A stretch of 64,000 nucleotides of DNA, taken from a virus. Positions 15,157-15,717 of this stretch are shown here, piece after piece (within the stretch, counting starts at the first letter, position 1; each line of letters starts with the position of its first letter). The notes beneath the pieces were generated by a model, which searched no databases, had not been told where the DNA came from, and saw only the letters and a program-made list of their open reading frames with translations. The stretch covers positions 8,436 to 72,435 of the IMG/VR virus record IMGVR_UViG_3300036857_000203, one strand, 5' to 3'. The translations under genes were made by a program, and so were the position numbers.

Positions 15157-15717
15157 AAGCCTGCCAAGCCCGGCCAGGACTGAACGCACCAAGCCAAGCC
15201 CGGCCCTGCCTTGCCTCGCCTCGCCAAGCCCTAGCTAGCCGGGCCAGGACTGCCACGCCAAGCCAAGCCCTGTCAGGTCCTGGCGTGCCGTGCCTTGCCG
15301 TGCCGTGCCTGCCGGGCCAAGCCGTGCCTGTCCGAGGCCTGCCGCGTCTTGCCGGGCCTAGCCCTGCCGGGCCTGCCGCGACATGCCGCGTCTTGTCAGG
15401 TCGGGACATGCCGGGCCATACCGCGCCCGCCTTGCCTCAACTGCCGCGACATGCCGAGCCTGGACCTGCCATGTCCAGCCGTCCGAGCCGGGCCAATGCC
15501 ACGCCTGCCGAGCCAAGCCAGCGTCGGGCCAAGGCATGCCGTGACATGTCATCCACGTAGATGACGTGCCTGCCATGCCCCGCCTTGCCGCGCACCGCCG
15601 GGCCGAGCCTCGCCGGGCCAAGCCCCGCCGCACCGGGCCTGCCGGGCCGCGCCATGCCGAGCCACGTCCCACCGGGACGCGCCACGCCAAGCCGCGCCGA
15701 GCCTGCGTTACCGTGCC
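15157..15717 (-). ncRNA. GGY-NN pentamer array, 8 units (putative guide-RNA array)
   Basis: About 100 pentamers; 4-nt phase breaks (GGCA on minus strand) at plus positions 15162, 15251, 15310, 15374, 15442, 15506, 15571, 15640 and 15704 (variant); directly downstream of the RAMP-like operon. Confidence 0.85.

Follow-up and report, generated by a model that had tools for sequence, protein, structure and literature searches.

VIPR (Viral Interference Programmable Repeat), first described in 2026, is a system of RNA-guided gene silencing used by phages against rival phages and satellites (10.64898/2026.04.26.720920; PMC13142463). Its Vipr protein is a phage-borne RAMP-like protein that polymerises on guide RNAs (vrRNAs) of 9-16 GGYNN repeats (10.64898/2026.04.26.720920), with one protomer per repeat and two adjacent protomers per GGY (10.64898/2026.04.26.720920; 10.64898/2026.04.26.720927); in the Vipr of phage SUSP1 the RNA-contact residues are H17, R138, D177, W178 and R179 (10.64898/2026.04.26.720927). 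In reading double-stranded DNA, the NN pairs skip one base of the target at each repeat, the characterised vrRNAs are approximately 100 nt long, and perturbation of GGY abolishes silencing (10.64898/2026.04.26.720920). VIPR loci are further described as having an accessory vap gene (vap1-6), vrRNAs that are expressed and co-purify with Vipr, and natural targets in rival elements, where the skip coincides with wobble positions. The guides of SUSP1 are aimed at the vipr genes of its relatives, the self-match being lower (10.64898/2026.10.15.759431), and according to the text of the first preprint its sets contain no self hits at 80% or above (10.64898/2026.04.26.720920).

The vrRNAs of type II systems (SUSP1, Pseudomonas fulva) have an invariable 40-60-nt tail with a pseudoknot (10.64898/2026.04.26.720920; 10.64898/2026.10.15.759431). 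The legend of Fig. S18 in the first preprint describes staggered arrays, where vrRNAs come from positions overlapping by 1 nt, the end of one marking the start of the next, and it mentions "individual processed vrRNAs", the underlying data being unstated in the legend (10.64898/2026.04.26.720920). As far as the text of that preprint goes, sRNA-seq confirmation is limited to the hammerhead and single-vrRNA architectures, and the staggered form is given without experimental confirmation (10.64898/2026.04.26.720920).

Here we consider a locus in a stretch of 64,000 nucleotides (the 64-kb window, to which all coordinates refer unless a relative is named), which is part of a 72,435-bp phage contig (G+C 63%). 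The window carries SU10-like portal, adaptor and capsid genes with a terminase, an Erf/exonuclease recombination module, an HNH-AP2 endonuclease, a superfamily-2 helicase, and a tail-fibre-like gene with collagen repeats (49785-51788). The HNH-AP2 gene (12946-13422) overlaps the start of the helicase ORF, as if a homing endonuclease had been inserted into the replication module. The locus itself comprises, in the minus-strand order, a vipr gene (16256-17071, 272 aa), an accessory gene (15729-16256, 176 aa) and a vrRNA array (15162-15707). Hence the array is situated between the helicase gene, which lies on the plus strand and ends at 15032, and the two minus-strand genes; read as GGCNN, it shares the strand of the latter and lies downstream of them. 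Since a Vipr homologue, an accessory gene and a GGYNN array are found at one locus, we consider it highly probable that this is a VIPR system, with a staggered array of eight abutting guides whose boundaries are the slips of the repeat register and whose targets are rival phages.

The product of the vipr gene is a RAMP-like protein matching phrog_4652 (E=4e-12) and the Vipr profile. As a single sequence it produced no structural match. Combined with 30 relatives into a profile of 31 phrog_4652-like proteins, with the window protein as the first, it matches residues 1-190 of the PDB chain 36pp_D ("SUSP1 Vipr protein"; E=1.3e-39). The G-loop reads GVGDGRQ in the window Vipr and GVGDWRP in SUSP1, the tryptophan W178 of SUSP1 being replaced by G; the position of H17 is occupied by N, as read by eye against the consensus line. 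Among the array-linked Viprs, the thumb arginines as well as the D-x-R of the G-loop are retained, with R148/R150, G186 and R191 invariant or nearly so, and in those other than the window Vipr the position of W178 is taken by F, G, H, Y or W. The close relatives found for the window vipr comprise only two viral and four metagenome loci, with 41-45% identity.

When the ORFs flanking the arrays were clustered, two protein families adjoining arrays emerged. The HMM of array-adjacent proteins scores the window accessory protein (motif F-x-W-D...R..A..I) at E=1.4e-32, a value that is not independent, as this protein is one of the nine sequences from which the HMM was built. Aligned via the same nine-sequence HMM, its relatives are phrog_15946; searches of PHROG and Pfam gave no match for the window protein itself. 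In its AlphaFold model (mean pLDDT 80.6), a small helical domain at the N-terminus is combined with a helical hairpin at the C-terminus; Foldseek gave no match at E <= 0.001 and the best VIA match (Z 4.9) covers the helical hairpin only, so that there is no clear PDB counterpart. In the phage Saal, gp51 belongs to phrog_4652 (3.8e-58) and gp52 to phrog_15946 (3.7e-89), and this pair flanks an array of the same kind. The conserved small gene at 15729-16256, situated between vipr and the array, is probably a vap gene.

On the plus strand, GCC recurs every 5 nt over 15159-15705, the phase shifting by -1 at intervals; accordingly read on the minus strand, 15162-15707 is a run of approximately 110 GGCNN pentamers. 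When the minus (RNA-sense) strand was parsed by dynamic programming, 110 units were obtained, of which 98 are 5 nt long, 10 are 4 nt and 2 are 6 nt. GGCA accounts for eight of the ten 4-nt units; these read TGCC on the plus strand and start at 15162, 15251, 15310, 15374, 15442, 15506, 15571 and 15640. Each of the eight GGCA|GGC junctions shifts the phase by -1. The 5' edge of the array is CGCA (15704-15707), and GGCA closes it at the other end. The eight guide units, each closed by the 4-nt GGCA, are numbered from the accessory gene: unit 1 (15640-15703; 12 repeats plus GGCA, preceded by the CGCA), unit 2 (15571-15639; 13 repeats plus GGCA), the irregular units 3 (15506-15570), 4 (15442-15505) and 5 (15374-15441), unit 6 (15310-15373; 12 repeats plus GGCA), unit 7 (15251-15309; 11 repeats plus GGCA) and unit 8 (15162-15250; 17 repeats plus GGCA).

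The parse reproduced the break-to-break spacings given in the original prediction (89, 59, 64, 68, 64, 65, 69 and 64 nt) together with its range of 11-17 pentamers per unit, and its example peptide for 15314-15373 was recovered when the NN pairs were read as codon positions 1-2. An extra GCCTGCC at 15337, absent from the predicted list of breaks, is offset by a nearby +1 slip. Over the whole window the heptamer shows no enrichment (25 copies found vs 26.3 expected); seven of the 25 copies fall, all on the same strand, within the 546-nt array. All reading frames are open throughout the array.

The array is not uniform. The GGY share (GGC or GGT) is the highest in the two units adjoining the accessory gene, with 10/12 and 12/13. 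In the middle, unit 3 has one 6-nt unit and few GGY, unit 4 has one 6-nt and one extra 4-nt unit, and unit 5 has an extra GGCG and a run of GAC/GTC units. The original prediction had placed 1-nt indels and an excess of non-GGY triplets at 15374-15570, and indeed all four additional irregular units, that is, the remaining 4-nt units GGCG (15428-15431) and GGAC (15481-15484) and the 6-nt units at 15520-15525 and 15495-15500, are located there, where the GGY share is also the lowest. GAC and GTC prevail among the non-GGY units (19 of 110 units), and the GAC/GTC share, 13%, is the highest among 44 loci. Deliberate hairpins formed by the GAC/GTC units were rejected, as the number of 6-mer stem pairs was 12 vs 11.7 in 1000 shuffles of the unit order; four inverted repeats are present in the array, with the local folding energy no lower than in shuffles. 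Relaxed recognition of the second G due to the W-to-G replacement in the G-loop was rejected too, the mean conservation of this G being 0.93 in ten G-type loci vs 0.90 in 17 W-type loci. Hence these two tests, the G-loop comparison and the hairpin shuffles, support neither random decay nor a structured arrangement of the GAC/GTC units. Since GGY is found in only 70 of the 98 five-nt units, additional indels are present, and GGY perturbation is reported to abolish silencing, a part of the array, namely its irregular middle, may be inactive. Within units 5-6, at 15311-15425, a period of 44 nt was detected by Tandem Repeats Finder (2.6 copies, 74% matches); thus, neighbouring guides are partly duplicates of each other.

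To place the array among its relatives, IMG/VR was scanned with the pattern (GCCNN)x6GCC. The scan gave at least 138 loci, 80 of them with full flanks among those listed; the Vipr HMM matches 75 of the 138 listed loci and 59 of the 80 with full flanks. In 43 de-duplicated arrays, the 4-nt GGCN units (n = 239) end with A in 215 cases, G in 16, C in 4 and T in 4, the fraction 215/239 being inflated by the choice of arrays with at least two GGCA breaks. An unselected count over all fetched arrays, not de-duplicated, gave TGCC in 205 of 247 NGCC units. At the corresponding position of ordinary repeats in the same 43 arrays, A is found in 34% of cases. Overall, 1991 of the 2405 units in these arrays are GGC or GGT, and all four bases are common at NN. 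The junction logo (193 junctions from 44 arrays) has GGC in phase on both sides with the -1 shift between them and retains little else besides a purine preference at the next variable base; GGC is kept whichever of the three codon phases it falls in, and NN is variable. The median of 172 break-to-break intervals is 11 repeats (interquartile range 9-13), and 69% of them are within the published 9-16. In the relative L142, the array extends over approximately 1 kb, with some twenty GGCA-ended units.

Among the 80 listed IMG/VR loci with full flanks, at least 21 have the staggered form. In the maximum-likelihood tree of 31 array-linked Viprs, a branch with support 100/99 separates all 19 staggered arrays from the 11 unbroken ones, and one short array with a single break groups with the staggered arrays; none of 500 label shuffles was as clustered. 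On the evidence of these sequences, the staggered trait belongs to one Vipr lineage, the Viprs of the compared GGCA arrays being only about 20-40% identical. The accessory HMM matches 13 of 21 staggered loci vs 3 of 59 others (full-flank IMG/VR loci among those listed). Unpunctuated in-phase GGYNN arrays may be very long, with 144 repeats in L012 (1450-2171) and 181 repeats in L051 (minus strand, 1690-2593).

A blastn search found a similar array, along with most of the locus, in 27 GenBank records of Cheoctovirus (cluster F-like) mycobacteriophages. Nine of these arrays were parsed between conserved flanks; all nine start with GGCA, and each unit ends with GGCA. Exactly one unit, the third one of Saal (59 nt), is missing in ByChance; two whole units of Donkeykong are absent from Zizzle, Brocalys and Pippy; in Quico the middle units differ, with the flanks conserved. 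A stub of three repeats (GGCAC GACAT GGCA) in Donkeykong, Zizzle, Brocalys and Pippy copies the end of unit 1. The whole-unit indels and the stub mean that recombination occurs at the junctions. Single-repeat indels are seen in the arrays of SwagPigglett and Philus. Thus, gain and loss of units between related arrays, proposed beforehand as a check on the role of the breaks, is observed among Cheoctovirus phages precisely at GGCA; the runs listed as containing the window phage itself are three DNA runs, with no RNA run among them, and no array variants were found in these.

The first guide of eight of the nine arrays (L001, L002, L147-L152) has a 6-nt GGCAAA at the same place, a +1 slip within a guide that is kept rather than corrected; Quico (L153) has none. 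In the GenBank records of these phages, ORFs of "hypothetical proteins" or extended gene starts are annotated over the vrRNA array (L001, 2977-3363; L148, 518-1450; L149, 1306-1464; L150, 1316-1504; L152, 1317-1505). As all frames stay open in such repeats, these ORFs are probably false, and we flag them as such. A literature search on pentanucleotide repeats in mycobacteriophages returned nothing on these arrays. Cheoctovirus phages grow on Mycobacterium smegmatis mc2 155 and, as their natural variants differ by whole guides, they form a ready test bed for the delimitation of tail-less guides.

Targets were sought by the NNxNN rule, with one target base skipped per repeat, and with shuffled guides as a control. 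The best candidate was obtained for unit 8, which matches the helicase gene of L154 at 28 of 34 NN positions (82%), in the codon phase and with the skips on wobble positions; none of 100 shuffled guides reached 28, the maximum being 25. With six mismatches, this is above the 80% criterion of the preprint. In IMG/VR, the closest relative of the window helicase is that of L154 (74% protein identity), which has no array nearby; a second relative is matched at 24/34, and no array was found within 2.5 kb in thirty helicase relatives. At the homologous site of the phage's own helicase gene (14691-14740, plus strand), the match is only 23/34 vs 28/34 in L154. The match begins at the first repeat past GGCA and hence is bounded by the break: when unit 7 was set upstream of the unit 8 site at gaps of 0-6, at most 8 of 22 positions matched. 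As a separate observation, in all three soil runs with the window phage there are contigs that follow the window sequence at 14600-14714, leave it at 14714, and past this point are identical over 30 nt to L154 (3782-3835), the relative without VIPR. Judging by these contigs, the window phage occurs together with the type of phage that is its likely target.

Unit 1 matches the own vipr gene (16740-16774, plus strand; codons for AAVDTPGATRAE) at 20 of 24 NN positions (83%), again with the skips on codon wobble positions, and one of 200 shuffles was equally good. Its best site is inside vipr in all six vipr-bearing relatives compared, with 16-19 of 24 positions (coordinates converted by hand), and the exact pattern has no match in IMG/VR, so that no perfect target was found there. 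This self-match, which exceeds the 80% level at which the first preprint has no self hits in its sets, could mean self-regulation, or else a guide directed against the vipr genes of relatives and barely sparing its own. For units 2-7, nothing above shuffled guides was seen in the own genome or in five whole relatives (G001-G005). The scans thus agree with the expectation that six of the units have no recognisable target, only units 1 and 8 standing above the shuffles. At a larger scale, 323 guides compared with 368 kb of fetched loci exceeded ten shuffles in 22 cases, the mean excess being 0.17 positions. The peptide decoded from unit 2 is Gly-X-Y-like, and the best two own-genome sites of this unit (18/26, within the shuffle range) are in the collagen-repeat gene (50121-50185).

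A strongly structured RNA is predicted on the minus strand past the last unit (15030-15161; MFE -69 kcal/mol, z = -4.18, none of 200 shuffles equal), its approximately 130 nt forming three strong hairpins between the convergent helicase and VIPR operons. The predicted hairpins may serve to terminate transcription in the absence of a T-tract, or else to cap the last guide at its 3' end. A consensus scan found no T-tract terminator at 15030-15161, and the sigma-70 and T-tract scans around the locus were unconvincing. The array is different: its folding as a whole is no stronger than that of shuffles (z = -1.58), the parse and the junction logo have no spacer, hairpin or ribozyme between the units, and a search of 14500-16500 found no Rfam family, hammerhead included, at E up to 1, nor a tRNA.

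The letter retained in unrelated phage contigs, the unit length, the whole-unit turnover and the bounded target together support the break as a guide boundary as far as sequence comparison goes, and they back the original prediction that GGCAGGC is a boundary signal. The following scheme would be consistent with these data. Guides of 11-17 GGYNN repeats would abut without a tail or spacer, adjacent guides sharing one base (GGCA|GGC), so that the pentamer register slips by -1 at each junction. By the published mechanism, one Vipr protomer per repeat would hold GGY and present the NN pair to double-stranded DNA. A 4-nt spacing might be unbridgeable by the protomer lattice, in which case the filament would end at the slip, and each break-to-break unit would form a guide of its own, coated separately and perhaps excised. 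The target of unit 8 would be the helicase gene of close relatives without VIPR, and vipr genes would be the targets of unit 1. The array would be transcribed, possibly processed at the junctions, and used for silencing. Our specific suggestion is that in this Vipr lineage the boundary is a mere one-base slip at which the filament ends, the junction being a cut site or a hinge, and that the first guide may throttle the own vipr gene; we offer it tentatively, as a reading that is quite possible but short of probable. If true, the slip-only boundary would be the most compact guide punctuation known.

The same slips could also be seen differently. The whole array might be coated as one uncut ribonucleoprotein, the slip only kinking or re-phasing the filament, with each segment pairing with its own target. 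The units have between them nothing that a nuclease could recognise, be it a spacer, a hairpin or a ribozyme, and neither extra structure nor an Rfam family was detected in the array; on the other hand, the characterised vrRNAs are species of approximately 100 nt, and individual processed vrRNAs are mentioned in the legend of Fig. S18, with the data unstated (10.64898/2026.04.26.720920). On balance we regard the uncut particle as rather unlikely. The slips might also have no function, being neutral scars of unit gain and loss by recombination or slippage at the GCAGGC microhomology, and the guides would then be delimited otherwise or not at all. Recombination at the junctions is indeed evident from the whole-unit indels and the three-repeat stub, the window array contains an internal duplication of 44 nt, and the arrays of 144-181 repeats without visible punctuation demonstrate that punctuation is not universally needed. 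However, scars would not be expected to retain the same letter in 215 of 239 slips despite Vipr identities of about 20-40%, to occur also at the outer ends of arrays, where unit-to-unit recombination plays no part, to keep the unit length in the vrRNA range, or to follow a Vipr clade, and the sole bounded target match stops at the slip. Scars are thus an improbable explanation, and the slip as a guide boundary is retained here as the preferred one.

An array of DNA-level iterons (an origin or centromere), or a region coding for pentapeptide repeats, with no RNA guides involved, would fit the open frames and the ORFs that some GenBank records annotate there. Yet the neighbouring gene encodes a homologue of Vipr, a gene of a relative is read by the NN pairs under the published 1-nt-skip rule, and no coding constraint would keep GGC in three codon phases while leaving NN variable; we find this alternative hardly credible. 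Several related candidates were discarded on the way: a replication origin with iterons, G-quadruplex repeats and a pentapeptide-repeat gene, as well as a TRAP-like RNA bound by a ring protein, were dropped once the neighbour matched Vipr, and helical phasing was rejected by arithmetic, since 5-nt units with -1 slips average less than 5 nt, the wrong direction for a 10.5-bp helix.

As the legend of Fig. S18 already describes staggered arrays with a 1-nt overlap (10.64898/2026.04.26.720920), the staggered concept is published, and the window array adds a member and not a new kind. The 1-nt overlap is the same thing as the 4-nt unit, GGCAG and GGCNN sharing one G, a likeness drawn from the text of the legend. 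Relative to the text of that preprint, the additions are the conserved A, the distribution of unit sizes, the whole-unit turnover in Cheoctovirus, the confinement of the trait to a single Vipr clade and the association with phrog_15946; any of these may already be covered by Fig. S18, the type assignments or data S4. Taken together, the staggered form is common and tied to one Vipr clade and one accessory family, with a near-invariant GGCA at the junction.

With type II VIPR (Escherichia phage SUSP1, Pseudomonas fulva prophage) the locus shares the Vipr family, the GGYNN vrRNAs with variable NN, the 9-16 repeats per guide, the small accessory gene and targets in rival elements, including other vipr genes, as far as type II is described in the preprints. 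It differs in that each type II vrRNA is followed by a tail, whereas the window guides abut with a single 4-nt GGCA between them, and in that the window accessory protein has no detectable similarity to any solved structure. Since its guides lack a structured 3' tail, structure being present only downstream of the whole array, the window locus is not type II. The gene order varies as well, the array following the vipr and accessory genes in the window but preceding them in Saal. Similarly to CRISPR and to Cas7-type RAMP filaments, a programmable guide array is found beside a RAMP-fold protein that polymerises on RNA, and, as in CRISPR arrays, whole units are gained and lost between strains. 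Unlike CRISPR, the locus lacks repeat-spacer pairs and Cas1/Cas2, and the pairing is not contiguous, the specificity residing in two of every five nucleotides, and the boundary between guides is a register slip of 1 nt instead of a repeat hairpin.
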